Origin: Saprospirales bacterium
Lineage (GTDB): Bacteria > Bacteroidota > Bacteroidia > Chitinophagales > Saprospiraceae
Assembly: GCA_016719895.1 (NCBI GenBank)
Contig: JADJYG010000031.1
Coordinates: 130,288-194,287, forward strand
DNA length: 64,000 nt
Direction of reading: 5' to 3'
Under the pieces are notes generated by a model. The model saw only the letters and a list, made by a program, of their open reading frames with translations, had not been told where the DNA came from and did no database searches. Below are positions 33,201 to 50,146 of this stretch, piece by piece; within the stretch, counting starts at the first letter, position 1; each line of letters opens with the position of its first letter. The translations under genes were made by a program, and so were the position numbers.

Positions 33201-36200
33201 ACGTGACCCACTGTGCGGAGGAATCCGGCTCGCTAAAGGTGCAACTCGGCGCAAATGACACCCGGGTACGCAGGCTATACCCTTCGTCGGGCGGACTGAG
33301 GTAGGCCGGGGAAAAATCGATGCGCAGCATCGAATCCGGAATGGTCTGAAACGGCAGCGGAATATTTTGAAGGACCGGCACGTTTTCCTGCAGGTTCAGA
33401 AATAACAATTCGGCGGACAGCGGTTCCAAGCCAGGCGGCATGATCAGGTCGTAACTGGAAATTTTCGACAAGGGCCGCACTTCGAAAGGGAAAAGGTTTT
33501 CCCGGGCGATCCGGATATTATAGGCAAACGGCGTGACTTGTACGGAGTGTTCACAGGGTTTTATACCGAAAGACGCTTTCGTGAGCGAGTCGGCAAAACC
33601 CGAATACTGAAACATCAGGGTGTCGTAACGGCGGTAATTGTGCCTTCGGTAAAGATCATTGAGGTTATAACCCACTTCGAAATTGATAAGGGGCGGGAAG
33701 TTCTGTTTGCAGTTGGGCGCGTAGTTTACCCCCAGTTTCAGGTCAATCTGCAATTGCACCGAGTCGCCGCTTTCCAGCAGAAAACCGGGAGGGACGTACC
33801 CGGAATCGCTCAACAGGTCCATGCGGGGGTTGAAGGGGTAATTCATAGAGGCCAACTCATCGATAACGGAAGCTGGTTTGGAGTTGACCACGGCCACCCG
33901 CCCGTACCGCTTATCCAACGGGAATATGCTGGCCAAAGGGCAGTAGTAAACCGCCTGGGCGCTGGAATCCCAAATGGTCATTGTAGCGGCAGCAATGCTG
34001 ATAAAGTCTTTATCGGTAAACCCGTTTCGGGCGGCATCCGTTTGGTTCGGCCCGATATTAAAGGTATCGAATACGCCGGCATACCCGAAATCGCTGCGGA
34101 TAATTTCGGCAAACAACTGGTAAAACAATCCCTTTATGCTATCGCCGCAGACGATTTTTGCAGCCAGGATATTGCGCAGTGTATCGCCAGGCAGAAACCG
34201 GTCGCGCCGCACCTTACCCATATCCAGCATACCGGCGGGGTCGGCTACGCGGTTGTTGTTGTTGTCCGGAAGGCCATAATTGAGGCGGTACGCCTCGTGG
34301 TGCTGCCGCATCTCAAAACACCCCTCGCCCGGGCCAACGACAACGGGTATGCTATCCTGTGGCCCGCCCGGGCCACCGGGGCATTGGCATGCGGTATGCA
34401 GTTCGAAAGCATCGCAGGCTGGTACGGCGCAATCCAGACCGGCATCGAGGCTGCGTGTGAGCAAGGCTGCTGTTTTCGGCTCATAGCCGCAGCCATAACA
34501 GGCTTCCGGCTCGTACACCACAAAATCGACGCCGGGTTCCGTACTTCCGCCGCCTGCATAGATGTACGAGGCATCGTCGCGACAGGTGTTTTTCAGGCAA
34601 AAATTGACAACAAAAAAGGTGTCAGACAAGGGCAATTCGAACGCTGCAAGCACCCGGTGTATGGGGTAGTCTGTGGTCATAGTATCATCGGAAAACAACA
34701 CCGGCATTTTACCATCCAGGAGCAGCGGACAATCAGGCGACCATTCCAGCCCGACGGGCAAGTCAAACTTCAGCCAAACATAGCCGCTGTCGGAAAGCAG
34801 GCGGTTGGAGTTCAGCCGGTATTGAAACGGGTAGGTTTGATTGTCCTCCAGGCATTCGCCGATGTTATAGGCCACGGCGGCATTCAGGTAATCCCCGGGT
34901 TTCGGTTCGAATACGACGGTGTCGGCTACTATAAATCCGCCGGGCGGGCAGGGTTTGTTGTAATAATAATTCAGGCGGATCTTTGGCAAAAACTGGGTGC
35001 AGGCAGGCAGGCAATAGTAGGTGTTGAAGGTGATCTCCAGGGTGTCGAATCCCTGCATTTCGGGGATATACAAGGTTATAAATGCCGAATTCGTATCGTT
35101 GCATACCGGCATGACAAAATCCTCGGCCAGGTTGGGTATCAGTGGGGAAGAAGCGCCATTTTGGTGGATTTGAAACGAATTTTTATCCATCCCGAGGGCA
35201 GTGGGCGCTTCGGAATTGATTTGCAGGATCAGGTTGGTAGCTGGGCCGGGGCCTTCGTTGATCATGCGCAGGCGCATTTTATGCGGTGTTTCCGCACAAA
35301 TTTCCCAAGGCAGGGCGTATTGTGTCAGGAAGCTCAGTTTAGGCTGGTAGCTGGAGGGCAGCACCACCACATCGGCATAGGTGCTGTCGGCCTGGCAGGG
35401 CGCTGCCGCCGCCGTGCAGCTCCAGGCGGCAGCGAGGTTCGAGCGGCAGGTAAAGCCCGGGAAACCGCAGTCGGTGACCGTGATTTGTTGTTTGATCAGG
35501 GCTGTTTCGCCAAACTCCAGCAGGTTGTCGCCATCGCCGAACGCGGTAAAAAAGGCGCCGTCGAAATAGGCGGAATAATGTGCAGGCAAATCTTGCTGCG
35601 CGGCGGCGCCCGCTACCTGAATACTGATGCCGGCGGGGTGTGAATCGGTCAGGAATAAATGCTGCACGGCGCCAAGCCGGGTATTCCGCACGTGCAGCGT
35701 GCGCATCAGCATCTGGCCTTTTTCACCGTAAATCGAGTCGTTGTCCACCTGTGTAATCACCAGCAAGCCGGTTTGAATCTGGAATTTGGTGGTGGCGACT
35801 TGCTCCGTCGCCGCCCCGGCGCGCACGCGCAATACCAGGTTAAATAGCTGGGCGGAGTTGATGGCCGCTACAAGGCCGCAGGTGGCAGCCAGCCGCAGCT
35901 GTACCGTAAGGGGCGTATTGGGGGGGAGCGCCGGCAGGGCCAGCACGGGTTTTTCCAGGTTGGCGATATCGAACTCGGACGCGCCGGCGACGCTTCCGGG
36001 CAGGTATTCCAGTCCCGGCGGCAGCTCCAGGTCGAGGAAGGCGTCGTTTACAGGGGCAGCGGTATTGTTCAGTATCGTCACGCTGAGCGTATCGGCAGCG
36101 CAAACCACCAGTTGGTCCGGATTTTTATAGGATATATTGAATGTTTGGGCGGAAAGCAGGGATGCAATAGCGCAGCAAAACGCCAGGAGGAGCGTAGATT

Positions 36201-36207
36201 TAAGCAT
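30244..36207 (-). CDS. giant cell-surface protein with gliding-motility-associated (T9SS type-B) C-terminal domain
   Basis: Start taken at the ATG at 36207 (MLKSTLLLAFCCAIASLLSAQ signal peptide). The track start at 36390 lies inside a palindrome. The C-terminus IPNVFTPDGDKVNDTF...IYNRWGQKVY...WDG is the CHU_C/type-B sorting domain. Confidence 0.85.
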   Translation of the reverse strand: MLKSTLLLAFCCAIASLLSAQTFNISYKNPDQLVVCAADTLSVTILNNTAAPVNDAFLDLELPPGLEYLPGSVAGASEFDIANLEKPVLALPALPPNTPLTVQLRLAATCGLVAAINSAQLFNLVLRVRAGAATEQVATTKFQIQTGLLVITQVDNDSIYGEKGQMLMRTLHVRNTRLGAVQHLFLTDSHPAGISIQVAGAAAQQDLPAHYSAYFDGAFFTAFGDGDNLLEFGETALIKQQITVTDCGFPGFTCRSNLAAAWSCTAAAAPCQADSTYADVVVLPSSYQPKLSFLTQYALPWEICAETPHKMRLRMINEGPGPATNLILQINSEAPTALGMDKNSFQIHQNGASSPLIPNLAEDFVMPVCNDTNSAFITLYIPEMQGFDTLEITFNTYYCLPACTQFLPKIRLNYYYNKPCPPGGFIVADTVVFEPKPGDYLNAAVAYNIGECLEDNQTYPFQYRLNSNRLLSDSGYVWLKFDLPVGLEWSPDCPLLLDGKMPVLFSDDTMTTDYPIHRVLAAFELPLSDTFFVVNFCLKNTCRDDASYIYAGGGSTEPGVDFVVYEPEACYGCGYEPKTAALLTRSLDAGLDCAVPACDAFELHTACQCPGGPGGPQDSIPVVVGPGEGCFEMRQHHEAYRLNYGLPDNNNNRVADPAGMLDMGKVRRDRFLPGDTLRNILAAKIVCGDSIKGLFYQLFAEIIRSDFGYAGVFDTFNIGPNQTDAARNGFTDKDFISIAAATMTIWDSSAQAVYYCPLASIFPLDKRYGRVAVVNSKPASVIDELASMNYPFNPRMDLLSDSGYVPPGFLLESGDSVQLQIDLKLGVNYAPNCKQNFPPLINFEVGYNLNDLYRRHNYRRYDTLMFQYSGFADSLTKASFGIKPCEHSVQVTPFAYNIRIARENLFPFEVRPLSKISSYDLIMPPGLEPLSAELLFLNLQENVPVLQNIPLPFQTIPDSMLRIDFSPAYLSPPDEGYSLRTRVSFAPSCTFSEPDSSAQWVTLDFPGCMIKSDSLVYVLESKIGFFSNHAKDTLTTDELTLNFPTDSVSVDILLQNLAPVTAPNYWIQLLNPEGGLSGLTITAGGSSTAIAAVDGIYQLGNLPILGTNSLQINGVNTTCDPQQLRIIYGWDCQPHLQSGPASCAQDTLVLLFQPLNPEIELELKDFPVNVPLCDTSDYFILELSNADFGHAYEPVVNIELPAGLQLLSGSCQMAYPVDSAFIDIPDPIPAGNNLLEWNLAGLLEANSLPGAFQLTKNALQIRFKVIAACGVVSYAQLIFGARAEWSCGRPTNTLRKASDPILVEGLAPTYTLQVIIAEQGTAGLSPCATERTIAVTLFTTGPALSGDSIYALLPPGFSYVSGSYQPGVHAPAGQPALSPAGLRWPMPAGLSAGSVITFTFAVTTPAAPACEAAVLRMQARQQTVAYCPAIQADCKVYVITGENSYQFPPPAAGVALTGATLSIQPDGKVNYTVTVANSNALAPFEIDILQFFYDVNLNGKHDAGDELLYTVGDLNAILEPGGMLSIPLNGLPAPDSLCHLLVVLPTKLNCVCPVSAIPVSVNTVLFALLERCLGEPVPLGLPTAAGHSYAWSGVPGLPCTGCSAFAFEPMAAGLYQLTLADQGPSCLVTYHYDVQINDAPVLQPVEPAICRNETITLQTTPALSWNWQGPGISNPNAPVQILQPAQGATYFVTATNAAGCTLTDSLTVAVLPADTLDLGVLRTCQGTPVDIFGALTETPGLYSDIRPAITTGCDTLVYLRLEVVPNTEEAISKCVADTLLIFGKPVTEAGVYCETFESSLGCDSTHCIVLSTFMVPELPDPDTFYFVLGGSVQLPGPDGYASYLWAPAEYLSCTTCQSPFASPPDTMEYTLALRTGDGCKDTLIYRVAPFPPCDPARIRIPNVFTPDGDKVNDTFTVVPYEGVEVIARLTIYNRWGQKVYDASGPNAAWDGTTFGEPAPSDVYLWLLEVLCNGDERKYRRGDVTVLR

Positions 36208-36308
36208 GGGATCACAAGTCGGGTTACCAATGAACGAATGTTCAAATATAAGGGATTGCCGGGTAGCCGTGCAATACCGGGTCAAATTCTTTGTTCGTCC
36301 CTCGTCCA

Positions 36309-36400
36309 AACCTGACAGGTGGTATTTAAAAAAACAGCCGGTTTTGCGTGCGCTTTGCGCCGCAAAACCGGCTGTTTTTTTAAATACCACCTGTCAGGTT
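36309..36400. repeat. perfect 40-bp-arm palindrome (12-nt spacer) with AACCTGACAGGT termini and a bidirectional-terminator core
   Basis: 36309-36348 is the exact reverse complement of 36361-36400. The inner part is A7-cagccggttttgcg / cgcaaaaccggctg-T7. A degenerate solo left arm lies at 36733-36775. Confidence 0.9.
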
Positions 36401-36678
36401 ACAAAAGCAGTCAGAATATTCTGAATGACCTGCTTAACTGCGTCAATATCATACCCCTCACCTCGCTGAAGCCCGGCCGCACTGTTTATCCGAATGAGGT
36501 ATTTCTACCCGCCAACAGTAGCGGTCTTCCCAACGACTCCATCGCCCTTTACCATCAAATTCGGACTATCGATAAAAAAAGACTTAGCCTGGAATACGGC
36601 GCTATTGCAGAGGAAGCGGTGAAAAACGATATTGTAGATGCCATTTGTTTTCAATTGGGCATTGTGAGATCGTTGTAG
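36401..36678 (+). pseudogene. mazF: 5'-truncated PemK/MazF-family toxin gene
   Basis: The translation NCVNIIPLTSLKPGR...PNDSIALYHQIRTIDKKRLSLEYGAI...IVDAICFQLGI matches the C-terminal roughly 80 aa of MazF/PemK (PlTs..., QIRTIDK-RL). The N-terminal roughly 25-30 aa, the start codon and a partner antitoxin are missing. The palindrome abuts the break. Confidence 0.6.
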
Positions 36679-36896
36679 CGGATCCTTTCCGCCGTTGCCA
36701 GCGGAGACCGCTCCGGTCGGGGCAGGGGTGTACTCCAAACCTGACAGATGGCAATAAAAAAGCGGCAGAACTTTCAGTCTGGGCCTACTCATACTGCCGC
36801 CCTATCCCCGGACAAGCTGGGTTTTTCGTCCCGACACGTTACCGCCGAGCCTCGGCTTCGCATAAGCAGCTCGCGAGTCAACCCCACCCCCACCCC

Positions 36897-36998
36897 TCCC
36901 CAACTGGGAGGGGAGCCGTAGATTACACCGCGACTTCCTCCGTAGAATGGGTCGTAGAGTACTCTACGACCACTCTACGGCTCCCCTCCCAGTTGGGG
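36897..36998. repeat. 25-bp perfect inverted repeat with a nested 20-nt palindrome
   Basis: ccccaactgggaggggagccgtaga (36897-36921) pairs with tctacggctcccctcccagttgggg (36974-36998). The inner palindrome gtcgtagagtactctacgac lies at 36951-36970. Confidence 0.85.
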
Positions 36999-37337
36999 CT
37001 GCCGATTACCCACATTTTGAAGAAATTTTTCTTGATAAGATGGTATGTGCCAGCCCCCGAAGGGGTCGAATTTGAATAGCCCCGCATGAAATGCGGGGGG
37101 GGGAATACGACGCGACACAACCGCGGTACTGCCGAGCGTGTGCTGTGCATAAATCCGATCTTCCTCCCTTTCTCCCGCGCTTGTCATAGACTGTCACTCT
37201 AGGAAAACACGAGAGCACGCAGGGCAGGATCCTGAATTCAAGCGCGGAGAATCCGCGGGTTGGTAGCCACCCAAAACGGTTGCCCTTGATCAACCGCTCC
37301 GCGGTTGTAAAACGGTTTGCCCTTTCAACCCCGCATT

Positions 37338-37411
37338 GTTGCCGTTGTTGGCGTCCCGCCAACAACTCACCGGAAGGAGAGGCGTTGTTGGCGCGATGCC
37401 AACAACGGCGG
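37338..37411. repeat. double-hairpin GCCGTTGTTGGCG / CGCCAACAACGGC element, long form, copy 1
   Basis: gttgccgttgttggcg-tcc-cgccaacaac ... gcgttgttggcg-cgat-gccaacaacggcgg. Near-identical to 38632-38705; a short form lies at 38142-38175. Confidence 0.85.
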
Positions 37412-37466
37412 AAAATTGGCTTAGCGCCAGATTCAGGCTATATTTGCTATCGAAATTCGAAATGAC

Positions 37467-37778
37467 ATGAAAAGCAATACGATTCACAATTTGGATAAAA
37501 AGCAAATCCTTGCCATATTGACACAACACCGTGAAGCGTTGAAAGATATGGGTGTAGAACGAATAGCTTTGTTCGGCTCTTATGCCCGTGGAACCGCCCG
37601 GCCCGACAGCGACGTGGATTTGCTTGTAGAACTTAAGGAACCCAAATACTTACTCCTCCTCCAACTGACGGACTATCTCAGCGAACTGCTCGGACATAAG
37701 GTTGACTTGATACGCCAGGGCCCGCACCTGAAACGACGCTTTATGGAAGCCGTAGAAAAAGACCTCGCTTATGTCTGA
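37467..37778 (+). CDS. mntA: MNT-type nucleotidyltransferase antitoxin
   Basis: 103 aa with the minimal nucleotidyltransferase motif LFGSYARGTARPDSDVDLLVE. Overlaps the downstream DUF86 gene by 8 nt. Confidence 0.85.
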   Translation: MKSNTIHNLDKKQILAILTQHREALKDMGVERIALFGSYARGTARPDSDVDLLVELKEPKYLLLLQLTDYLSELLGHKVDLIRQGPHLKRRFMEAVEKDLAYV

Positions 37779-38121
37779 TATCCTGCTCAACCGGCTTGCA
37801 ACCATCATTGAAGCACTTGAACTAATAGAGCGCCGTATGGTCAAAATAAAAAAAGCAGATGCCTTTGTGGACACCGAAGAAGGTCAGCTTATCATGGATG
37901 CGATTGCTATTCGGCTTCAGGTGATCGGAGAAACCACCAAAAAAATTGACCTGCAGCAACCGGACTTCTTGCCTTCTATCGGAATAGACCCTAAGCCTAT
38001 CATCCGCTTCAGGGATTTTATTTCACACCATTACGACGAAGCGGACTATGAAGTGCTCTTCGAAATCTGCACGAACCACTTGCCCTTGTTAAAGGCGAAA
38101 TTAGAGAAGCAAAAAAGATAG
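37771..38121 (+). CDS. hepT: HepT-like (DUF86) ribonuclease toxin
   Basis: 116 aa with an Rx4HxY motif (RFRDFISHHY) near the C-terminus. Paired with the MNT gene. Confidence 0.85.
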   Translation: MSDILLNRLATIIEALELIERRMVKIKKADAFVDTEEGQLIMDAIAIRLQVIGETTKKIDLQQPDFLPSIGIDPKPIIRFRDFISHHYDEADYEVLFEICTNHLPLLKAKLEKQKR

Positions 38122-38141
38122 ACGACCCTGTACCTTCATTG

Positions 38142-38175
38142 GTTGCCGTTGTTGGCGCGACGCCAACAACGGCGG
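38142..38175. repeat. GCCGTTGTTGGCG hairpin element, short form, copy 2
   Basis: Perfect 13-bp stem: 38145-38157 / 38161-38173 with loop cga. Carries the same flanks (gttgcc... ...ggcggaaaa) as copies 1 and 3. Confidence 0.85.
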
Positions 38176-38195
38176 AAAAATCTGGAAACACACGC

Positions 38196-38591
38196 ATGAA
38201 AAAGATCATACTCGAAACCCGCTACGTGCTGGCTGTGAAAGACCTGCAAGCCTCGGTTCATTTTTACGTCGAAAAATTAGGCTTCACTATCGATTGGGCG
38301 CAGGATGGCTGGCACCAACTGCGCCGGGAGGGTATCGTCGTCATGCTCGGCGAATGCGCCGACGACGTGGCGGCTTTTGAAACCCGCAACCATTCCTATT
38401 TCGCCTATATCCTGGTCGATGCGCCGGATGCCTTGTTCGGAGAGTTCCATGCCAAAGGCGTGGAGGTCTTGTCCTTCCCCACGGACAAACCCTGGGGCAT
38501 GCGTGAATTCGGAATTCGAACCATTGACGGGCACCGCATCACGTTCGGGCAGGAGCTGCTGAAATCCGATGTCGCGTCGGGCAACTTCTAA
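38196..38591 (+). CDS. VOC-family (glyoxalase/bleomycin-resistance) protein
   Basis: 131 aa from the ATG at 38196. Beta-alpha-beta-beta-beta module signatures (LAVKDLQASVHFYVEKLGF ... PWGMREFGIRTIDGHRITF). Confidence 0.8.
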   Translation: MKKIILETRYVLAVKDLQASVHFYVEKLGFTIDWAQDGWHQLRREGIVVMLGECADDVAAFETRNHSYFAYILVDAPDALFGEFHAKGVEVLSFPTDKPWGMREFGIRTIDGHRITFGQELLKSDVASGNF

Positions 38592-38631
38592 AATCTGCAA
38601 TCTTAAATCAAATATGGTTTGACGGGAAATG

Positions 38632-38705
38632 GTTGCCGTTGTTGGCGTCCCGCCAACAACTCCCCGGAGGGAGAGGCGTTGTTGGCGCAACGCCAACAAC
38701 GGCGG
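38632..38705. repeat. double-hairpin GCCGTTGTTGGCG element, long form, copy 3
   Basis: gttgccgttgttggcg-tcc-cgccaacaac-tccccggagggagag-gcgttgttggcg-caa-cgccaacaacggcgg. Confidence 0.85.
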
Positions 38706-38840
38706 AAAAGCGCGAATCGTACTGACCTCGTAGAGGTCAAATATTGGTAGTAGAATAAATGTCCCGACATCCTCGCACGACCTCGGTACTGCCGAGCGTG
38801 TGCTGTGCATAAATCCGGAATCTTCCCTACCCCCTTTTTT

Positions 38841-38952
38841 TCTCCCCCCGCGCTTGTCATTCTGAAAGAACCTGTCCACTCTACGAGGAATAAACACGAG
38901 ATGCACGCGTAGAGTGGACAGGTTCTTTCAGAATGACAAGCGCGGGGGGAGA
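38841..38952. repeat. 45-bp perfect inverted repeat (22-nt spacer)
   Basis: 38841-38885 (tctccccccgcgcttgtcattctgaaagaacctgtccactctacg) is the exact reverse complement of 38908-38952. A degenerate single-arm copy lies at about 37171-37220. Confidence 0.9.
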
Positions 38953-39381
38953 AAAGGGAGCACAGCTTGGGGTGGCGGGTTATGCGTAGCCGAGGCTCGG
39001 CGGTACCGAGGTCAGGTGATACTTTTTCATATCAAGATGTGGGTAATCGGGAGTCCCGAGGCCTCGGGAGAGGGGTGGGGTCGACTCGCAGCCGGCAATA
39101 TGCGCAGCACACGCTCGGCGGTATAGTGTCAGGAACGGGACAAACACCTGTTCAGTGGAGGCCATCCAGCCCTCCTGTGAGCTGCAAGGAAAAAGAACAG
39201 AGGCGGAAGCCAACAGAGGCGGAATGCCGAACGGGGTCCGGCGATACATATATACGAACCAAATTTCCCCATATATGCATTCAGCGGCGACACATAGACG
39301 CTTCGCGTGTATATATATGCCATATATGCTGCGCCTATATATGCGCTTTCGGATAAGCAATGCTTTTACGCGTAGGGGTGC

Positions 39382-39420
39382 GCAAGTATCGGCGTGACTT
39401 AGAGTCACGCCGATACTTGC
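39382..39420 (-). terminator. strong hairpin downstream of the nSTAND gene (terminator-like)
   Basis: Perfect 18-bp stem gcaagtatcggcgtgact (39382-39399) / agtcacgccgatacttgc (39403-39420), 54 nt past the stop at 39474. No clear U-tract, so terminator function is tentative. Confidence 0.45.
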
Positions 39421-39473
39421 ACAAAGAGCCTGCCCCGAGTCCTCGGGGGTAAAAGGGTAAAAGAGCCAAAGGG

Positions 39474-42188
39474 TTATTTTGTCCTGGCCAGACGGAAACC
39501 CGTGCTGTAGTCGCGATAACCGGGTGCGTCGTAGTAGCGATACGCCACACGGCAGCTCTGCGGGTAGTTCCCCCACGACCCGCCGCGAATGACACGGTAG
39601 GAGCCCTCCTCAGGTCCGGCTGGATTAATCTGCGGATTACCGGTATCCTTGTACGCACCATACCAATCCCAGCACCATTCCCATGCGTTGCCGCTCATAT
39701 CATAAAGGCCGGGGGCGTTGGCTTGCAGACGCTGCACCGGGCGGCTACGGCTGCCGGAGTTTTTATAGTACCAGCCCACCAACTCTAAAGAATCGCTGCC
39801 CGCATACCGGTAATCATCCCGCCCGCGGTTGGTGGCGGCGTATTGCCATTCGGCCCCGGTGGGCAGGCGAAAGCCGTTGGCCCAGCCTTTTGCAGTGGCG
39901 GGCGTAACAATGCAATCCTCTTTGCCGGTTGAATCAATTATATACACCGGCTGTAAGCCTGCCTGTTCGCTGCGCCAGTTGGCAAAAACCACCGCATCGC
40001 ACCACGACACATTCACCACCGGGTTATCTCCTTCACTGCCCCAGACCGGTTTTTCGGGCATTTCATAGCCCGATGCCTGGCAAAACAGGTAGTATTGCCA
40101 CCAGGTGGTTTCGGTGGCGGCTATGCGGAAGGAGGAGACGGTGGCGCGGTAGGCGAATATTGTTGTATCCTTACGATTATATTCCTTCAAATCAAAACTG
40201 CCGCCCTCGATGGGGATCATCGTGCCGAAGTAGCGGGTGTGCATGTTGTCGGCCAGGCGGGCAACCCGATCATCGCCGCCCGGTGTGTCTTTTGAGAAAG
40301 ACGCCGTTATTTTTTGTTTTTCGAGGCCAGCCAATTGCTGCATCACCTCCGCCATGCTGGCGGCGCGGGCAGTCTGGCCCGTGTGGTAATCCACGAAAGC
40401 GATTTCGTACAGCGCCTGCGCCACTTCGGTCTTGCGCTGGCCGAGAGCGGCGGCTTTCAGGAGGCTGGCGCGGGCGTTTTCGTATTCGAGGCGGTAAACA
40501 TCATTTCGGGCTTTTTCCAGCAGGCTGCCCACCACCTCGGCTTTGGCGGCATTGGCTTTGGCCTGTTCCTGCAGGGCTTTGAGTTCGGCTGCTTCGGCGG
40601 CCGTGAGGGCGGCGGTAGCTTCTTTTTCCTTGAGTTCGGCGTAGCGGGTTTTTACGGCGGCGGTGTCGATGGCGGCCCGGGCGGCGCTGTCGGCGCGTTG
40701 GGCGTCGAGGGTTTTGGCTTCGGCAAGCCGGTTTTTTTCGGCGGCATCGCGGGCGCTCCACAGGGCCCAGCCGAGCAGCAGGAGCGCGCCGAGGCCGATG
40801 GCGAGGCTGCGGTTGCGCGCGCGGCGGATTTTTTCGCGTTCGCGGCGCTGGGCTTCGGCTTCCGCCCGCGCCCGCTCGCGTTCGGCGGCTTCGCGTTCGG
40901 CGCGGCGGCGCTCCTCGCGGGCGGCCAGTATGGCGCCCATGAGGGTGTCGTGGCTGATCTCGTAGTGGGTGCCGCGGGCGGTTTGTTCGCGGCGCACGAG
41001 GAAGGCGTTCACCAGCGCGTCGAGCAGGGCCGGGGGCAGGGCGCGGCCGTGTTTGGCGTGGAGGTTGGCGGCCAGGGCGTCGCCGTCCATGCTGAGGCGG
41101 CGGGCTTCGCCCTTGGCCTCGTCCACGTACAGCAGTTCTTCCTCCAGCAGCAGGCGGGCCGTGCGCTCCTGTTCGGCGTCGGCCAGGCTGCCGATGCGGG
41201 CGGCGTAGTAGTTTTCGAATATTTTTTCAAAATCGGGCAGGTCGGCCGCGGCGATGGTTACGGCTTTTTCGCCGCGGCGGTTGCGCGTGCGCACGGCGTC
41301 TTCGATGCTCTGGCACACGATCTGGAGCTGGAACGATTCAATCTGGCCGGCCTCCTCGCCGGCGCTGCCGCTGGCGAGCTCGTCCACGATGCGCTGCAGG
41401 GCAGCGGGTTGGAACGCGAAGGGCAGGGTGTCGAAGCGGGGGTCATCGGCGGCGGCGGGGCGCACCATGGCGGCTTCGGCCTGTTCGGCGCGCAGGCCGC
41501 GCAGCTCGTAGCGCTTGCGCAGGATGTCGGGCAGTTCCTGCCGCATCGAGTCGAGCAGGTGCAGGCGGTCGGAGCGGATGGCAAACACGGCGTGCACGTC
41601 GAGGGGCTGGGAGAGCTGGTCCTGGGCGGCCTCGTCGAGGCGGTCGAACTCGTGGAAGGCCGCCTGCGGGATTTCGGTGTAGAGCAGTTCGGAGATTTCC
41701 TGCCGGAACTGCTGCTGCTGGTCGGCCGGGTAGAGGAAAAACTCTTCGAACTGGTCGAACAGCAGGACGAAGGCCACGGGCGTGCCGCCAGCCGGCTGGC
41801 GGCGCTTGAATTCGCGCCAGAGCGTGCGGCCGGTGGGCAGGTTGTCGTAGAATGCCGTGCCGGGTGCGGGTGGGCAGGCGCGTTCGAGTTCGGCGAGCAG
41901 GGCGTCTTTGGGCGGCAGGCTTTCGCCGCGGGCGTAGGCGCCCAGGCGGATGGCGATGGGCACGCAGGTTTTGCCGCGGAAAGCGGCGGGGAGTTTGGGC
42001 AGCACGCCGGCGTTGAGCAGCGAGCTTTTGCCGTGGCCCGATTTGCCAAACAGCACGAGCAGGCGCTCGAGTGCGGTGAGGCGGAGCAGGTCGGCGATCT
42101 CCTGGTCGCGGCCGAAGAACAGGTGTTCCTGTTCGCGTTCGAAGGGCGTCACGCCCGGGTAGCGTCGGGAGAGGCGGGCGGTGTTCAT
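39474..42188 (-). CDS. nSTAND-type P-loop NTPase with coiled coil, single TM segment and C-terminal FGE-sulfatase (SUMF1) domain
   Basis: 904 aa from the ATG at 42188, which forms an ATGA overlap with the upstream stop. The track ORF from 42653 adds an R/P-rich out-of-context leader. Motifs: YPGVTPFEREQEHLFFGRDQE; Walker A GKSGHGKSS; Walker B VLLFDQFEE. Charged coiled coil; TM SLAIGLGALLLLGWALWS (nt 40755-40808). FGE-fold motifs RLPTGAEWQYAA, GNAWEWCWDWY, RVIRGGSW and GFRLAR. Confidence 0.85.
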   Translation of the reverse strand: MNTARLSRRYPGVTPFEREQEHLFFGRDQEIADLLRLTALERLLVLFGKSGHGKSSLLNAGVLPKLPAAFRGKTCVPIAIRLGAYARGESLPPKDALLAELERACPPAPGTAFYDNLPTGRTLWREFKRRQPAGGTPVAFVLLFDQFEEFFLYPADQQQQFRQEISELLYTEIPQAAFHEFDRLDEAAQDQLSQPLDVHAVFAIRSDRLHLLDSMRQELPDILRKRYELRGLRAEQAEAAMVRPAAADDPRFDTLPFAFQPAALQRIVDELASGSAGEEAGQIESFQLQIVCQSIEDAVRTRNRRGEKAVTIAAADLPDFEKIFENYYAARIGSLADAEQERTARLLLEEELLYVDEAKGEARRLSMDGDALAANLHAKHGRALPPALLDALVNAFLVRREQTARGTHYEISHDTLMGAILAAREERRRAEREAAERERARAEAEAQRREREKIRRARNRSLAIGLGALLLLGWALWSARDAAEKNRLAEAKTLDAQRADSAARAAIDTAAVKTRYAELKEKEATAALTAAEAAELKALQEQAKANAAKAEVVGSLLEKARNDVYRLEYENARASLLKAAALGQRKTEVAQALYEIAFVDYHTGQTARAASMAEVMQQLAGLEKQKITASFSKDTPGGDDRVARLADNMHTRYFGTMIPIEGGSFDLKEYNRKDTTIFAYRATVSSFRIAATETTWWQYYLFCQASGYEMPEKPVWGSEGDNPVVNVSWCDAVVFANWRSEQAGLQPVYIIDSTGKEDCIVTPATAKGWANGFRLPTGAEWQYAATNRGRDDYRYAGSDSLELVGWYYKNSGSRSRPVQRLQANAPGLYDMSGNAWEWCWDWYGAYKDTGNPQINPAGPEEGSYRVIRGGSWGNYPQSCRVAYRYYDAPGYRDYSTGFRLARTK

Positions 42189-43348
42189 GCGGCGTTGAGG
42201 ATGTCGGTGGCGTTGGCGAGGATGTCGGCGGCCAGTTTGTTGCGGGCGGCCTGGCGGGCGTCGGGGTGGAGCGTGTCCTGTTGTTCGTTGAAGTCGGCGT
42301 GGCGGCTTTTGAGCAGCGACACGGCGGTTTTGCCGGCGTCGGTTTGGGCGGCGGCTTCGAGTTCGTTGAGGGCGTTGGTGAAGTCGTTTTCCTCCACGTA
42401 CTGGCGCACGAAGGCCAGGCGGGCGTCGAAGGGACGGTCGGTGCGGCGCACGAGGGAGGGGTGTTCGGCGCGGAAGGCGTCGAGCAGGTCGCGCAGGAAA
42501 TCGTCCTGTGCGGCCCAGTCGAGCGGGGCCATATGGAAATGGCCTTCGAAGAAGCGCTTGAAGTCGGCGCTGGGATAGTCGGGCTGGGCGGCGAATTTTT
42601 CGCGGTTTTCGATGATTTCGGTCAGGAGCTGGATGAGCATCTGGGTATGCCATTTTTCCAGTTCGAAGCCGAGGAAGATAAACTTGTCGGCGTCGGCCAG
42701 GGCGTCGGTGAGGCCTTTGGGCAGGCGGCTGGTGTCGAGCACGCTTTTCATGTACTTGTACAGGTCCTCGTAGTCGAGGATGATGGATTCGTGGTCGTCC
42801 ACCGAGCCGCAGAGGTTGTACACCAGGGGTTTTTGGAGGGTGGGCGGGGCTACTTTGCGGACCTCCTTGTTGCCGCCCACAAAAAAGCCCGTCTGGTGCT
42901 GGGTCTGCCAGGCGGCCAGGCTGGCCGAGAGGAATTTATCGGGTGTGGTGCTGATGACGAGGTGCAGGGGCAGTTGGGCGAGCAGGCGGAGGGTTTCGGC
43001 GTTTTCGGCCTGGAACTCCGGGTCGGTCCAGAGGTTGCGGAGCCATTCCTTGGCTTTTTTTTTCACGCGGATGCGGGCGGAGGTGCCGGAGAAGAGGAAG
43101 AGGGCTTCCTGTTCGTAGTAGAGTTCGATGTCGCCGGGTTTGGCGAGTTCGAGCAATTGTTCGCGCAGGTAGCGCTGCACGGGCACGCCGCGGAAGCGGA
43201 GCAGGTTGGGGCCGGCGAGCAGCACGCAGCCGGTGTTTTTGATGCTTTCGACGGTATCGTCGAGATCGAAGACGGGAAGAGGAAGGGCCATAGGCGCGTT
43301 CAAATGTGTGTTTTTGGCGGGATTAAAAGTAGCGTTTTTTGTATACAT
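42185..43348 (-). CDS. SIR2-like (SIR2_2 family) protein with C-terminal helical adaptor (EAD-like) tail
   Basis: The order of blocks matches SIR2_2: GCVLLAGPNL, LHLVISTTPD, VYNLCGSVDDHESIILDYEDLY, FIFLGFELEKW. A roughly 100-aa helical tail follows (LLKSRHADFNEQQDTLHPDARQAARNKLAADIL). An alternative start lies at 43291 (MALPLPVF). Confidence 0.65.
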   Translation of the reverse strand: MYTKNATFNPAKNTHLNAPMALPLPVFDLDDTVESIKNTGCVLLAGPNLLRFRGVPVQRYLREQLLELAKPGDIELYYEQEALFLFSGTSARIRVKKKAKEWLRNLWTDPEFQAENAETLRLLAQLPLHLVISTTPDKFLSASLAAWQTQHQTGFFVGGNKEVRKVAPPTLQKPLVYNLCGSVDDHESIILDYEDLYKYMKSVLDTSRLPKGLTDALADADKFIFLGFELEKWHTQMLIQLLTEIIENREKFAAQPDYPSADFKRFFEGHFHMAPLDWAAQDDFLRDLLDAFRAEHPSLVRRTDRPFDARLAFVRQYVEENDFTNALNELEAAAQTDAGKTAVSLLKSRHADFNEQQDTLHPDARQAARNKLAADILANATDILNAA

Positions 43349-43962
43349 CGCTTTATGGTAATCCGACTTCCCGGTTCAGGTCAAACTCAACGAGTCTGAC
43401 GAAACGGTATCCAAAACGATTTACACCAGGGCTGAGCAGAAAAATCTCGCTGATTTATTCGGGTTTTGATTTTGGGTGTACCAGTGTCGAAAACAGGAAG
43501 GCGGGCTAAGCGGCTTTCCCTCGTTAACGAGACGTTAAAAAAATACTCCTGTATAACCCTATTTAAGTTGCTTAAAATCAATTAGTTGCACTTGTTTTTA
43601 ATTTTCATTGGTACAGAATTTAGTGCAATAAATTTTTTCTCTTACCCGCGTTTTTCTGTCAAATTTCTACGCTGCCGGGGCATCTCCTCCCCTTCTGGCG
43701 CCACTGCATTAAAGCCTTTCCCAGTGATTTTCTTCGCTGTTTGATGGTTGCTGGCAACATATCGCCGCAGCAAATCGGCCAACCCTTAAGTATGTTTTTC
43801 CAACACCAGCCTTAACAAAAGTCGCAAGATTTATGTCTGGTTGAAACAAAATGTTTTTAAAAACGAATCGGTACGCTATATTTGCCACTGTCTTAAAAAA
43901 CAGACCGATTACTCATGAAGTCGACCAAGGTTGTCCAGTTATGCATCCGGTTAAGGCTAATA

Positions 43963-44460
43963 TTACTTGCTAAGAGTGGCAGCCACATCATTGAGACCCA
44001 AAAGGTTGACGAGGTCGATTGTGGGAAACCGGACAATGACTCTCAGGTAAACACTGACGACCAGACCCAATTGATCCAACCGCTTTAACTCCGGGTAATC
44101 CACGAATGCTTGCGCACAGGCTAACTTGAGCATATATATTTGATTGGTGCTCAACTCGGCCGGATACTGTTGTAAAACGAATTCGTACAACTGCTCCACC
44201 TCCTCTTCCGTGGGCTCACCGCGCAGTTCTAAAGATTTATTTTTTCCTAAGTATTTCTCTCCTTCGCCTGTCATAATCCACAACGGATTGACATTGGCAT
44301 CATTCAAAAGTCGCTCTAAGTGTTCCAGGCGCAAGTTTCCTTTGCCCTCACCCTTTAGAATATTTGAATAGTAGGACGCCTCAATGCCCATCAATTCTGC
44401 CATTTGGGCCTTATTTAAGCCCAAATCCCGCCTAATTTCTTCTAACCTGTCTGTTTTCAT
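43963..44460 (-). CDS. XRE-family HTH transcriptional repressor (CI-like)
   Basis: N-terminal HTH LGLNKAQMAELMGIEASYYSNILKGE. Divergent from a small HTH gene across a 115-bp AT-rich region. Confidence 0.8.
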   Translation of the reverse strand: MKTDRLEEIRRDLGLNKAQMAELMGIEASYYSNILKGEGKGNLRLEHLERLLNDANVNPLWIMTGEGEKYLGKNKSLELRGEPTEEEVEQLYEFVLQQYPAELSTNQIYMLKLACAQAFVDYPELKRLDQLGLVVSVYLRVIVRFPTIDLVNLLGLNDVAATLSK

Positions 44461-44477
44461 ACCGCGATAAGGGTAAT

Positions 44478-44524
44478 AATTAAAAATATCTAAACTATTT
44501 TTTGATAATTTAAAATATCTGAAT
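44478..44524. promoter_or_regulatory. candidate operator repeats in the repressor/cro intergenic region
   Basis: Two near-identical boxes, aatTAAAAATATCTaaa (44478-44494) and aattTAAAATATCTgaa (44507-44524), lie between divergent genes. Confidence 0.4.
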
Positions 44525-44575
44525 ATTTTTGCCCTGTCAATTCACAAATCAAAACGCAAAGAACGCAAAAAAGGA

Positions 44576-44839
44576 ATGACCAAATCCGCTGATATCGTTC
44601 AACTGCGCATGGAACTTCGGGCGAAGTTCCGGCAAGAATATGGCTCAGTGACTGCTTTTTGCAGAGAGCGGGGCATCTCGCCGGAATGGCTTCGGTTGGT
44701 ATTTGCGGGGAGGTATGAGGGATATGATTTGCTGGTCGAAGCCGCCGAATTTCTAAGCCGCTATAAGGAAGAGAAACAGGCTCAACGGCTGCAAAAACAG
44801 CGCTATTTTGCCGAAAAGGTAGCCAATTTGCCGCTCTAA
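44576..44839 (+). CDS. small Cro/CII-like DNA-binding protein (putative)
   Basis: 87 aa with an HTH-like segment (SVTAFCRERGISPEWLRLVFAG). Its position opposite the repressor supports the call. Confidence 0.5.
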   Translation: MTKSADIVQLRMELRAKFRQEYGSVTAFCRERGISPEWLRLVFAGRYEGYDLLVEAAEFLSRYKEEKQAQRLQKQRYFAEKVANLPL

Positions 44840-44887
44840 TTCAAAACAATTTGAGTAAAAATTTAATACAACCAATTTACGCGACTT

Positions 44888-45313
44888 ATGATCTCTCTCA
44901 GTCAACAGGAACTTCAGCAGCTGGAATCACAAATAAACGAGGTCTTGATGAATGTGATCGGCAAGGCGGGAGGTATCCTTTCCGGCATGGCCGTCAGCCC
45001 GCATTGGATCAGCCACACCGATGCGATGCAAAAACTGGGCTGGCCGAAGATCCTGCTGAAAAGAGGCGTGGAATTGGACCACTTGCACCCTATCGTAATT
45101 CCCGGCACCGGTGGTACGCAGTACGACCTGGAGGAACTGATGCGCTACAAGCATTTTCTGATGGACGAGCGGCGTGAAAGCCGGCTCCACCCACATTACA
45201 TATCCAATTTTCTGGCACAATCACAACCTGACACGCATGTATTACCTGACAATTCTCAAAAAGGACGCCCGGGAAATCGGCTACCTGGTCGCCGAAAGTC
45301 CGTTTCGCGATAG
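44888..45313 (+). CDS. hypothetical protein (possible excisionase/MerR-like HTH)
   Basis: 141-aa ORF. The central segment WISHTDAMQKLGWPKILLKRGVE resembles an excisionase-type HTH. The C-terminal roughly 35 aa look non-coding and overlap the next ORF. Confidence 0.4.
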   Translation: MISLSQQELQQLESQINEVLMNVIGKAGGILSGMAVSPHWISHTDAMQKLGWPKILLKRGVELDHLHPIVIPGTGGTQYDLEELMRYKHFLMDERRESRLHPHYISNFLAQSQPDTHVLPDNSQKGRPGNRLPGRRKSVSR

Positions 45314-45479
45314 CAAAGAACAGGACGAGCATATCGACATCCGCTTAGACCAGACCACGGAAGAAGAAGCGGTGCTCGAAGCTACGAAATTTGTCGAAAG
45401 GCACCGCCTGACCTATTGGGAGGTGCACCACGTCGTACAGGTAGCGGGCTGTCACATCACCAACGGTGATTGGGATTAA
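45237..45479 (+). CDS. hypothetical protein
   Basis: 80 aa from the ATG at 45237 with coding-like composition (MYYLTILKKDAREIGYLVAE...). Overlaps the tail of the previous ORF, so one of the two boundaries is wrong. Confidence 0.35.
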   Translation: MYYLTILKKDAREIGYLVAESPFRDSKEQDEHIDIRLDQTTEEEAVLEATKFVERHRLTYWEVHHVVQVAGCHITNGDWD

Positions 45480-45516
45480 TTTTTTTGCCCCAGCAGTTGC
45501 ACATGCGGGGCATACA
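45480..45516. repeat. 37-nt T7 + hairpin repeat, copy A
   Basis: TTTTTTTGCCCCAGCAGTTGCACATGCGGGGCATACA matches 49591-49627 at 33 of 37 positions. Intergenic, 70 nt upstream of the 45588 start. Confidence 0.85.
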
Positions 45517-45587
45517 TACGACCAACAGCAAAACGCTCATATCCGGTGGCCCCGAGGACTCGGGGCCGCCACTTTTCTCCTTTCGTT

Positions 45588-47396
45588 ATGACGGCATCCA
45601 AGTCGAATTCCCGCCCCACTCCGAATGCTTGGGAGCAGGAACACCACAACCTGCAACGTATCCTGAACCTCGACATCAACCTGCGCCGGGAAGAACTCAA
45701 AGACGCCCTCCTGGACTACGAGGATGCGCACCCGGGCAACAACCTGGTGGGCAGTAAGGTGTACGAATTCCTGCGGCACTGCCAGAACATCGTCTGGAAG
45801 CAATTGGCTGAACTGGCCGTGTCTAATCCGGCGGAATACGAGCTGTGGCGCGCCGGCCAGCGCGGCCACTGGCCCTTGCAGACCAACAACGTCGCCCACG
45901 GGATGCTGCTCCGGCTTTCGGAAGGCCGGCGGGCGCAACTGCACGAAGTGGGCGCCGCCATCGAGCGCACCAAATCCGGGATGCCGGTGATTTCCGATAA
46001 CATTCGTCGCACGGTCCAAAACTGGCGCCGCAAAACGACGGCTGCCTGGGTCACGCAAAGCGGCGACACGCTGAAAGGTTTCCCGTTCTTCCTGTCCTGG
46101 ACGCGCCTCAACCGTGCCGGAGAGCCCGATCCCAAAGGCCGTGGCAACGTGATCGGCTTGGTCAATTTGACCTGGATTTTCGGCCCGGAATGGGCAGATG
46201 CCACGGGCGAAAATGCGACCGATTCCGAGCCAAATGCGGCGGGACAACAGGAAAAAATTTCCACAATTCCCCCAATAATTAAAACCGTTGAAAAAAAGAA
46301 GAAGGAAGAGGAGCGGCTTTCCGCTGAAGCGGAAGACGTTTTTTTCCAGTCGGCAAAGCCGACAGAACCGGGGGTAAAAACCGCCCAACAGCAAGGAACG
46401 CCCTCCGGTGATTCCGGGCAAATTTTTGAGCAAAAAAATATTGCGGCTCCCCCGCCCGCTGCCGGCGGCGGCGCGCTGGCACGGGCGGCCGTGCTGTGGC
46501 AATTCCTGTTGGCCCGGATTTACCTGCCACTTTTGGGGACTGGCCGGATCCGGCATAGTTCTGAAAATGCCTACTTGAAGGACCATTTCATGTCCTACAC
46601 CGCCCAAAAATGCGTGGAATTGCTCGTCGAAAACCTGCATTCAGCCCGAAATGCGGGCGATGTCACCCTCGAAGAGGCCGAAATGCGGCTTCGTCAAGCC
46701 ATCGAAAGCCAGGCCAAATACCTGGAAGACAATCCTGAAACCTGGGTACTAACACCCGAAAAGTTCATGCGGCCGGATCGTCCACACGGCACCCTGCTGA
46801 GCGCCCTGCGATTGTTCGTGAAAGAACCGCACACCCCGCAAATTCCGCCCGAAAACCCGGAAAACGAATCCGCCCGCGAGCGCAAAAACCGGCTGTATGC
46901 CCACTTGCTCTCCCTCGGCGCCAACCGCACCCATCCCGGCACCTTCTCCCGTTGGTATTCCGAATACGGCCCGCAGCACCTGGAGGCCTGCATGACCTAC
47001 ATGGCCCAGCAAGCCGAACGCCGACGCCAGGCTGGAAAGCCGCAAAAACGGGAATTCGACAGCAACCGGGGCGGCGCTTCGGCCTATTTCGCCAGCCTGA
47101 TCGCCCGTTTCGATAGCCAGGGTGTACAACGCGAACTGGAACTTTCCGAACGGCAAAAAATCAAAAATGCGCTCTGGGAAAAGGTCTTCGCCATGCAAGC
47201 CAAGCAGACTTCGCCCGAAATAGAACAGCTCCGGGCAGATATGTCGGTGATCTACCACCGCATGTGCGCGGAGCCGGATTTCCGCGACGCTACCCTGCGC
47301 GACACCAACGCTTTTTTCCAAATGCGGATCGAAAACTACACCACGCCGACTTTCATCGTGCTGGCACACCACGTCCTTCAACAGCAACACAACTGA
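45588..47396 (+). CDS. large hypothetical protein (candidate replication-module protein)
   Basis: 602 aa from the ATG at 45588. No recognisable motif. First gene after the hairpin repeat and upstream of dnaB. Confidence 0.55.
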   Translation: MTASKSNSRPTPNAWEQEHHNLQRILNLDINLRREELKDALLDYEDAHPGNNLVGSKVYEFLRHCQNIVWKQLAELAVSNPAEYELWRAGQRGHWPLQTNNVAHGMLLRLSEGRRAQLHEVGAAIERTKSGMPVISDNIRRTVQNWRRKTTAAWVTQSGDTLKGFPFFLSWTRLNRAGEPDPKGRGNVIGLVNLTWIFGPEWADATGENATDSEPNAAGQQEKISTIPPIIKTVEKKKKEEERLSAEAEDVFFQSAKPTEPGVKTAQQQGTPSGDSGQIFEQKNIAAPPPAAGGGALARAAVLWQFLLARIYLPLLGTGRIRHSSENAYLKDHFMSYTAQKCVELLVENLHSARNAGDVTLEEAEMRLRQAIESQAKYLEDNPETWVLTPEKFMRPDRPHGTLLSALRLFVKEPHTPQIPPENPENESARERKNRLYAHLLSLGANRTHPGTFSRWYSEYGPQHLEACMTYMAQQAERRRQAGKPQKREFDSNRGGASAYFASLIARFDSQGVQRELELSERQKIKNALWEKVFAMQAKQTSPEIEQLRADMSVIYHRMCAEPDFRDATLRDTNAFFQMRIENYTTPTFIVLAHHVLQQQHN

Positions 47397-47398
47397 TC

Positions 47399-48121: not shown

Positions 48122-48217
48122 TCCGCCAAACCCATGCGCGATCAACGGCCCAACTCTTCCCGCGAATACCCGTCCAGAATGCGGCAAAATCCGGCCCAAA
48201 TGCGGGAAGATGCCGGC

Positions 48218-49747: not shown

Positions 49748-49760
49748 AACATCCCAAGCT

Positions 49761-50135: not shown

Positions 50136-50146
50136 AAATCCCTGCT

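Follow-up and report, generated by a model that had tools for sequence, protein, structure and literature searches.

A SIR2-like protein and a predicted membrane-spanning nSTAND1 NTPase with a hypervariable lectin-type domain are encoded by a two-gene operon of a Saprospirales bacterium

A 64,000-nucleotide stretch of contig JADJYG010000031.1 from a Saprospirales bacterium (assembly GCA_016719895.1; hereafter the window) carries two overlapping minus-strand genes, which we call gene A and gene B. Gene A encodes a protein of the SIR2_2 fold with a helical tail at its C-terminus. Gene B encodes a 904-residue protein combining an nSTAND1 NTPase, a transmembrane (TM) helix and a domain with the fold of the formylglycine-generating enzyme (FGE). 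We are confident in this identification of the operon's parts, and a conflict or immune role for them is quite likely. On balance we favor the reading that the operon is a two-gene conflict or immune module built like a transmembrane NOD-like receptor (NLR), in which a periplasmic lectin rewritten by a diversity-generating retroelement (DGR) would act as the sensor and the SIR2-like protein as its partner.

The two open reading frames (ORFs) lie at 42185-43348 (387 residues) and 39474-42653. The second has an in-frame ATG at 42188, which yields the 904-residue product (42188-39474, beginning MNTARLSRRYPGVTPFE). At the junction of the genes, gccgcATGAacacc, the ATG of gene B overlaps the TGA of gene A. 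This ATGA, at 42185-42188, had been noted in an earlier prediction made from the sequence alone (hereafter the original prediction), and it recurs in homologous loci. Gene A probably starts at Met20 (window position 43291, giving 368 residues), since homologues of 368 residues begin at the equivalent Met. Profile searches with Pfam matched SIR2_2, nSTAND1 and FGE-sulfatase, and also EAD11, an effector-associated domain (EAD), at a score below threshold. Gene B matches MBK8924234.1, encoded on a 210-kb contig of a Saprospirales bacterium metagenome-assembled genome, at 100% identity.

The two genes occur together well beyond the window. Loci in the genome collection were retrieved with gene B as the sole query and are thus unbiased with respect to gene A. 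Among the 15 of these with more than 1.15 kb of upstream sequence, 12 encode a SIR2 gene within 400 nt of the nSTAND1 gene and one more (L019) a partial SIR2 copy, so the pairing assumed in the original prediction is real. The other two (L028, L036) have instead a TIR gene of about 505 residues, with the catalytic Glu kept in L036. Similarly, every locus retrieved via gene A (L001-L009, L090-L104) has an nSTAND1 gene directly after the SIR2-EAD11 gene. Most of these have the 4-nt overlap, including L001-L009, L090 and L092, and a short gap is found in L094/L095 and L099-L102. Homologues of gene A and gene B were found on the same contigs. The settings vary, with rimP-nusA-infB on one side of the pair in L001 and L103, a uracil-DNA glycosylase gene (UDG) on the other side in L001, and toxin-antitoxin genes, repeats and a mobile element around it in the window and L096. 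As the genomic contexts differ between loci, genes A and B travel as a unit. The nSTAND1-FGE proteins of L033 and L056 carry a fused TIR domain at their N-termini. Comparison of the family by hhalign with the upstream proteins of L028 (TIR-type) and L029 (unknown type) gave no shared adaptor. We gave no weight to P0097 (837 residues, nSTAND1 then SIR2-EAD11) and P0153 (611 residues, SIR2 then nSTAND1), both from short contigs (2-3.4 kb); they may be real fusions, or read-through or frameshift artefacts of adjacent genes.

The NTPase of gene B matches nSTAND1 (PF20703) over residues 10-446 (E=2.6e-29; 103.5 bits, where the gathering score is 27.1; 2-370 of the profile's 379 positions aligned) with no domain ahead of it in Pfam. 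Its Walker A motif (GKSGxGKSS) and its Walker B motif (FDQFEE) are unchanged throughout 68 homologues, in agreement with the nSTAND-type P-loop module first proposed. One hydrophobic helix is present at residues 461-479, where a single TM helix (residues 461-478) had been predicted. A hydrophobic helix at about residues 450-500 is found in the great majority of the best 120 homologues, and short homologues of 550-610 residues with no FGE domain carry one as well. In nearly all of the best 120, Lys and Arg are more frequent in the 15 residues on the N-terminal side of the helix than on the C-terminal side, which by the positive-inside rule places the NTPase in the cytoplasm. In the AlphaFold2 (AF2) model (mean pLDDT 89.2) the NTPase with its arm leads into a charged helix of 53 residues (415-467) and a TM region of low confidence; a helix of 56 residues (510-565), TPR-like repeats and a beta-rich FGE fold come next. 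Both the charged helix before the membrane and the second helical, TPR-like stretch after it had been anticipated.

Split versions of the system point the same way. In L047 and L050 the SIR2-EAD11 gene is followed by an nSTAND1-TM gene, whose product has about 90 residues of helical tail on the extracytoplasmic side, and then by one to three separate FGE proteins, each beginning with a signal peptide or lipoprotein box. The separate sensor proteins of the split variants have a similar helical module after the signal peptide. With a conserved TM helix, its Lys/Arg bias and the export of the split sensors, the sensor of gene B is very likely extracytoplasmic and the NTPase cytoplasmic, the topology that the original prediction had given.

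Gene B appears to be modular at the membrane. Compared with the homologues P0002-P0006, its cytoplasmic half is 76-85% identical, close to the 77-84% of gene A, and its stalk and lectin only 19-48%. For P0011 the pattern is reversed, at 42% identity over the NTPase and 69% over the lectin scaffold. Since the two halves differ in identity and the switch occurs at the TM helix, the alignments indicate that extracytoplasmic modules are exchanged on a conserved signaling chassis. The third gene is leucine-rich repeat (LRR)-like in L004-L009 and L090, and the LRR-type products of L004 and L006 have signal peptides. In L094 (3811-9168) the third genes encode an LRR protein and then three Kelch beta-propeller proteins. 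A separate arrangement is seen in L010 (5610-9115), where the closest homologue of the operon in the genome collection adjoins a TIR-FGE fusion (7880-9115, 411 residues), predicted to be cytoplasmic, with a C-terminus like a variable region. More TIR-like and FGE fragments are close by, so FGE-lectin conflict genes cluster there.

The FGE-like domain of gene B is best described, from its sequence and model, as a C-type lectin (CLec) variable domain like that of TvpA rather than an enzyme. Pfam FGE-sulfatase matches residues 656-902 (E=2.3e-41), and nSTAND1 and FGE-sulfatase share one polypeptide in more than 70 full-length homologues. The closest solved relative is TvpA of Treponema denticola (PDB 2Y3C) both by sequence (phmmer E=1.5e-31, compared to about 1e-15 for true FGEs) and by fold (Foldseek E=8.9e-20 with 31% identity, compared to about 3e-14). 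TvpA and the gene B lectin have the same FGE-type CLec fold with the variable region (VR) at the C-terminus, but TvpA is a surface lipoprotein on its own, lacking an NTPase, a TM signaling module and an effector partner. The Cys pair of the FGE copper site, CxxxxC, is missing; LCHESYC of the T. curvata FGE aligns with GNYPQSC with a gap. The SUMF1/FGE fold of the original prediction stands, the domain does not resemble SUMF1 in function, and the link to a DGR had been overlooked.

The final 40 or so residues of the homologues fit RGGSW-xxx-xx-x-CRVA-x-R-xxxx-P-xx-R-xxx-x-GFRL, with hypervariable x positions at which N, D and Y are common. At positions where the template repeat (TR) would encode Asn, the VR codons of the window are mostly NNC or NNT, with GGG and GCA as exceptions. 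Three related loci (L013, L017, L018) encode a reverse transcriptase (RT) with the DGR hallmark GNLTSQ...YMDD and have a TR 1.7-2.1 kb downstream of the VR. The TR/VR mismatches fall on TR adenines in 22 of 22, 18 of 21 and 20 of 25 cases, respectively. L017 and L013, the latter with RVT_1 and an HRDC accessory gene, also have the SIR2 gene upstream.

The window locus carries the same signature. Its syntenic counterpart in a metagenomic JGI strain (L096) is 97.6-99.9% identical in DNA. The two gene B copies differ at 43 positions, 15 of which are within the 93-nt VR (16% compared to 1.1% elsewhere; binomial P=6e-12). All 15 are in codons explicable by adenines of an unseen TR (for example, GGG/AGC, AGC/TAC, TAT/GAT, TAC/GAC, TAC/AGC, GAC/AAC and AGC/AAC). 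A sister clade, the P0005 cluster, is paired with a gene A that is 84% identical, and among its nine proteins of at least 90% identity 22 of the 31 variable columns are in the last 50 residues. Of the 135 residues in the hypervariable columns, 132 are within the set of 15 reachable from AAC, and K, E, Q, M and W make up 21% of the remainder of the protein. No RT was seen on the contigs of this cluster. These comparisons establish, at the level of sequence, that both the relatives and the window locus have been diversified by a DGR. The accessory protein of the cis DGR in L013 (12651-14242) is an HRDC-domain protein and not of the Avd type, and the TR of this DGR (14114-14242) is directly 3' of the RT gene.

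Gene A matches Pfam SIR2_2 over residues 131-268 (E=3.9e-9, 37.2 bits against a gathering score of 24.5) and EAD11 over residues 314-378 (E=4e-4, 20.7 bits, under the gathering score of 26). Most of its homologues (366-369 residues) are annotated with EAD11, and the family comprises 573 representatives of 50%-identity clusters at E<=1e-30. In the AF2 model (mean pLDDT 87.5, pTM 0.78) a Rossmann-type domain is followed by a four-helix C-terminal tail (helices at 290-366 in the 368-residue numbering), which together with the EAD11 match accounts for the helical tail of roughly 100 residues described earlier. The top PDB matches of the model in Foldseek are the immune SIR2 NADases ThsA, KomC, DSR2 and Avs5 (E 3e-9 to 1e-6), with a TM-score of up to 0.68 for KomC.

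Tentatively, the operon may encode a cell-envelope antigen receptor in which a hypermutated periplasmic lectin signals across the membrane to an NLR-like ATPase and from there to a SIR2-fold executioner that lacks the canonical His. Gene B would be in the inner membrane, its nSTAND1 module and helical arm in the cytoplasm, with a rigid charged helix leading to the TM helix and a stalk presenting the lectin in the periplasm. The VR, the last 30 or so residues, would form the ligand-binding face of the lectin and be rewritten by a DGR encoded elsewhere in the genome, so a population would hold many receptor specificities. Binding of a non-self ligand in the periplasm by the VR face, with phage tail or ejection proteins, envelope-degrading enzymes, and toxins or structures of predators or competitors as candidates, would be transmitted through the stalk and TM helix and free the STAND module for nucleotide-dependent oligomerization. 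The oligomer might recruit or activate gene A, the constant cytoplasmic partner, via the EAD11 tail. Gene A might then act on NAD+ or a related nucleotide, or nucleate an assembly, leading to cell arrest or death.

A number of results weigh against this receptor model. The hydrophobicity of the TM helix in the window protein is modest (Kyte-Doolittle 1.77). In PADLOC-DB v2.0.0 no family matches gene B at E<=0.1 and gene A has only weak matches to ThsA (E=6e-4, 16.5 bits) and PDC-S25 (E=0.059), which also means that the locus is in none of the named systems of that database, as originally proposed. Membership in Thoeris was rejected given the weak ThsA score and the lack of a SLOG domain and of ThsB. 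An EAD11-like segment was not found in the gene B family (hhalign with the EAD11 tail, probability 0.2%), so the coupling of the two proteins is not homotypic EAD-EAD pairing as per Kaur et al. The third gene of L092 (9784-12987) encodes a 1067-residue caspase (Peptidase_C14) protein, and therefore the effector may not always be the SIR2-like protein.

Others concern the DGR. The case for ongoing diversification at this exact locus is one strain comparison, and in L096 a 1-nt insertion in the VR (8737-8939) causes a frameshift that lengthens the ORF to 930 residues (P0301). The insertion may be an assembly artefact or a chimeric consensus of several VR alleles, or a true DGR-induced frameshift. 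The 64-kb window yielded no TR (blastn-short and relaxed blastn with the last 327 nt of gene B), no DGR RT (six-frame scan for GxxxSQ...YxDD, which found 11 in related loci) and no RT or HRDC accessory gene (tblastn with the L013 proteins). Further FGE, nSTAND1 or SIR2 copies were also not found in the window with tblastn. Because the VR is diversified yet RT, TR and accessory gene are all lacking in these 64 kb, the window locus appears to behave as a remote DGR target. Two exact-pattern scans of metagenome contigs, with N at the variable codons, gave zero matches to the predicted TR; they are uninformative, as the syntenic JGI contig was also missed and the collection evidently is without these samples.

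The remaining difficulties lie in the active site of gene A. Alignments with KomC and SeThsA place AGPN in gene A where GAGxS is expected. STTPD replaces the canonical TTNYD, with Thr for the Asn in the window's clade, and YNLCG replaces xKLHG, with Cys for the catalytic His. The His-equivalent position is A, C, G, S, T or F in 34 close family members and F, C, L, T, A, M or I in 128 representatives of 50%-identity clusters; none of the 34 or the 128 has His or Asn there. The Asn position of TNxD is N, T or S across the family, and the family-wide motifs are G-P, (N/T/S)-P-D and a residue other than His or Asn before Gly. ThsA (Thoeris), KomC (Kongming) and DSR2 share the fold of gene A but need a catalytic Asn and His (deposited as KomC H146N and DSR2 H171A) where gene A has Thr and Cys, and gene A is without a SLOG domain, ThsB or KomA/B. 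In Avs5 the His of the HG motif is replaced by Asn (NG motif) and the enzyme is still an active NADase with GAGxS and TTNxD kept, while Ala or Gln at that position abolishes defense (Mol Cell 2026, PMC12931631). Avs5 is the only known active defense SIR2 without the His; it needs this polar Asn and retains GAGxS and TTNxD (PMC12931631), none of which gene A has. As all three canonical motifs deviate, NAD+ depletion by gene A cannot be assumed; that it degrades NAD+ or a nucleotide is at best an even call. Of the SIR2-type partner in the original prediction, the immune-SIR2 fold holds and the canonical residues of GAGxS, TNxD and HG are missing.

It is conceivable, if rather unlikely, that the SIR2-like protein is catalytically dead and serves as an adaptor, scaffold or nucleotide-binding regulator, with toxicity coming from membrane-proximal gene B oligomers or from other effectors, recruited in trans or encoded by the third gene. 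The three degenerate motifs, with no His in any of the family members compared and the Asn changed to Thr in the window's clade, fit such a role, as does the caspase-domain protein of L092. Inactive enzyme domains also recur in conflict systems of this kind (Kaur et al. 2020, PMC7159879). Yet the TIR domains in the same slot of sister systems look active, most loci have no other candidate effector, and gene A is under strong purifying selection, at 80-84% identity where the sensor half of its partner is at 19-48%. The family invariants G27-P28, P117-D118, Y158-N159, G162, G208 and W214 are at the C-terminal ends of beta-strands in the AF2 model. In Rossmann folds this strand edge forms the ligand crevice. 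Since the invariant residues line the usual crevice, as those of retained active or binding sites typically do, we infer from the model that gene A keeps a nucleotide-binding or non-canonical catalytic site.

The module could also act in something other than anti-phage defense, such as recognition at the surface or in the periplasm for kin discrimination or for sensing of predators or competitor toxins in filamentous Saprospiraceae, with arrest or death as the output. To our knowledge, the experimentally characterized bacterial STAND or NLR-like immune proteins (Avs, bNACHT) all sense phage proteins in the cytoplasm, whereas the sensor here would be outside of it. DGR-diversified lectins elsewhere in bacteria, TvpA for example, are surface ligand-binding proteins, and both Kaur et al. 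and Doré et al. (see below) tie such systems to multicellular bacteria. Nothing in the data separates phage from non-phage ligands, however, and the toxin-antitoxin genes, mobile element and ABC-3C genes nearby are typical of a defense island, with SIR2 and TIR partners being hallmarks of abortive infection. We regard this non-phage role as improbable. Last, we rejected as hardly credible the reading of gene B as an FGE/EgtB-type enzyme with the NTPase as a regulatory appendage, in an operon for metabolism or protein maturation: the FGE-sulfatase match, the GenBank annotation ('SUMF1/EgtB/PvdO family nonheme iron enzyme') and matches to NCBIfam EgtB, SenA and GldK suggest it, but the latter are far under their cut-offs (57-70 bits compared to 350-544; EgtB 56.9 against 360), TvpA is the best relative by both sequence and fold, the copper site is gone, gene B has no DinB domain, unlike EgtB, and its C-terminus is hypervariable in the DGR pattern.

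The receptor model places the operon in a class that has already been predicted computationally. Kaur, Iyer, Burroughs and Aravind (2021, eLife 10:e70394, PMC8195603) described STAND(nSTAND1)-FGS conflict systems, in which EADs or effectors, among them TIR, caspase, trypsin and kinases, occur and a DGR link is frequent. Like them, gene B has a C-terminal FGS/FGE-fold lectin joined to an nSTAND1-clade NTPase, and its family shares the DGR association, NAD+-targeting effectors such as TIR at or next to the N-terminus and several paralogues per genome. The kinship to Aravind-type NTP-dependent conflict systems claimed in the original prediction is supported by this match in architecture. The FGS domain was read there as an intracellular sensor of invaders, with no mention of a TM helix or the periplasm, whereas the gene B family has a TM helix and exported split sensors that put the FGS domain outside the cytoplasm. 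SIR2 is not among the effectors listed (PMC8195603). In contrast to the 'EAD principle' of those systems, by which the NTPase and separately encoded effectors carry matching EADs, EAD11 is on gene A only and the NTPase is without an N-terminal EAD or effector, the effector-like gene being adjacent and co-conserved.

Doré et al. (2024, PNAS 121:e2316469121, PMC10907252) described DGR-diversified nSTAND1/NACHT-CLec 'antigen sensors' in Thiohalocapsa and multicellular bacteria, including remote targets diversified in trans and some targets with TM segments and a predicted periplasmic CLec. Gene B has in common with them the nSTAND1-CLec architecture with a DGR VR, apparent behavior as a remote target, a predicted periplasmic CLec and the reading as a conflict system. 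Those sensors are from Thiohalocapsa and the related DGR clade 5D, with trypsin-EAD8, TIR and peptidases as effectors and with no SIR2 or NAD and no Bacteroidota or Saprospiraceae (PMC10907252). The TM helix, moreover, is constant in the gene B family, and the sensor is sometimes a separate secreted protein. Like Avs5 (AVAST type 5), whose filaments are among the Foldseek matches of gene A, the operon joins a STAND ATPase to a SIR2-fold effector. One cytosolic polypeptide makes up Avs5, and the phage protein to which it responds is recognized in the cytoplasm (PMC12931631), while the SIR2-like protein of the operon is a separate gene product with EAD11, the sensor is predicted to be extracytoplasmic and is DGR-diversified, and PADLOC gave no Avs match.

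FGE-sulfatase-like sensors also figure, uncharacterized, among the STAND clades of a 2026 preprint. In the literature searched, a combination of DGR, STAND and SIR2 was not found beyond Kaur et al. 2021, Doré et al. 2024 and this preprint. The original claim of an uncharacterized architecture is accordingly only partly correct: the class had been predicted (PMC8195603, PMC10907252), and the SIR2-EAD11 partner and the family-wide TM helix are in neither report. What is new in this locus is the conserved TM helix and exported sensor, the separate SIR2-EAD11 partner without the His, the apparent remote DGR targeting and the Saprospiraceae host.

If the receptor model is correct, a STAND sensor would be positioned beyond the inner membrane and rewritten by a DGR, for an outside-in, anticipatory recognition that follows a different logic from cytoplasmic sensing. 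Invaders or competitors would be detected before entering the cytoplasm, and receptor diversity in the population would be analogous to that of lymphocyte receptors. The SIR2-EAD11 family lacking the His would represent a new catalytic or signaling variety of the sirtuin fold. It is a large SIR2-fold family in which residues thought essential for sirtuin chemistry are lost, yet strong constraint persists. The operon family is compact with two genes, abundant in Saprospiraceae and modular, the effector being SIR2-like or TIR and the sensor fused or secreted and of the FGE-lectin, LRR or Kelch type. It therefore lends itself to experiments and could potentially be engineered into a programmable receptor. 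The lectin assignment also corrects the nonheme iron enzyme annotation of hundreds of proteins.

Table 1. Features of the operon and their positions in the window
Feature	Position	Strand	Basis and remarks
Gene A, SIR2_2 fold with C-terminal EAD11 helical tail	42185..43291	-	368 residues from M20; longest ORF to 43348 (387 residues)
SIR2_2 match	42545..42958	-	Residues 131-268 of the 387-residue ORF (Pfam); degenerate motifs STTPD and YNLCG inside
EAD11 helical tail of gene A	42215..42409	-	Pfam residues 314-378, under gathering score
ATGA start/stop overlap coupling genes A and B	42185..42188	-	Sequence; recurs in homologous loci
Gene B, 904-residue nSTAND1-TM-stalk-CLec (FGE-fold) putative receptor	39474..42188	-	ORF, Pfam, AF2
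nSTAND1 NTPase module	40851..42161	-	Residues 10-446, Pfam
Walker A	42021-42047	-	Gene B residues 48-56
Walker B	41742-41768	-	Gene B residues 141-149
R/E-rich, highly charged single helix, NTPase-to-membrane linker	40809..40946	-	Residues 415-460; sequence and AF2 helix 415-467
TM helix, predicted N-in/C-out	40752..40808	-	Residues 461-479; hydrophobicity and K/R bias
Predicted extracytoplasmic helical stalk, long helix then TPR-like repeats	40224..40751	-	Residues 480-655, AF2
TvpA-like C-type lectin (FGE-fold) domain, predicted periplasmic	39483..40223	-	Residues 656-902; Pfam, 2Y3C match
DGR-type VR, SW[GNY]PQ[S]CRVA[Y]R[YYDA]PG[Y]R[DYS]TGFRL	39492..39584	-	Residues 869-899
21-bp inverted repeat with 3-nt loop, about 50 nt 3' of gene B stop	39379..39423	.	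Possible terminator or REP-like hairpin

The operon has a GC content of 0.63-0.69, compared to 0.43-0.55 in its flanks. On one side is a zone of repeats and toxin-antitoxin genes (PemK-like, MNT and HepT genes; REP-like palindromes) and on the other an element with XRE repressor, DnaB, Dcm, SNase and ABC-3C genes, so the GC-richer block between a repeat and toxin-antitoxin zone and a mobile element is as it had been described. The repeat zone (36300-39430) has dense palindromic repeats, with five copies of CGTTGTTGGCG-N4-CGCCAACAACG (37343-38709), a perfect inverted repeat of 40 nt at 36309-36400, another of 48 nt at 38838-38955 and a number of dispersed repeats of 25-42 nt; they look like repetitive extragenic palindromic (REP) or miniature inverted-repeat transposable element (MITE)-type elements. 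A PemK/MazF-like toxin ORF (36319-36678) starts within the 40-nt palindrome. It is followed by an MNT nucleotidyltransferase and HepT RNase toxin-antitoxin pair (37467-38121) and a gene of the glyoxalase/bleomycin-resistance type (38139-38591), and all of these genes are kept in the syntenic L096.

A putative integrated element (43963-55938) adjoins the operon. It encodes an XRE-type repressor (43963-44460, minus strand), a DnaB helicase (48134-49747), a C5 cytosine methylase (50585-52159), an SNase nuclease (52237-52827), a CTD10 protein of ABC-3C systems (52938-53957) and a DUF2326 protein (54196-55938), with several ORFs that have no Pfam match. The CTD10 (ABC-3C) and DUF2326 genes suggest that the element carries a second predicted conflict system. 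No tRNA gene was found in the 36-64 kb part of the window. Divergence from L096 over 34000-48323 is very uneven. In the part of the mobile element between 45.5 and 48 kb, 2-3% of positions differ per 250 nt, and the gene for a giant protein of the type IX secretion system (T9SS) type (34000-37126) is 99.87% identical. A 2048-residue surface protein with a gliding-type CHU_C/T9SS C-terminal sorting domain is encoded at 30244-36390 on the minus strand.

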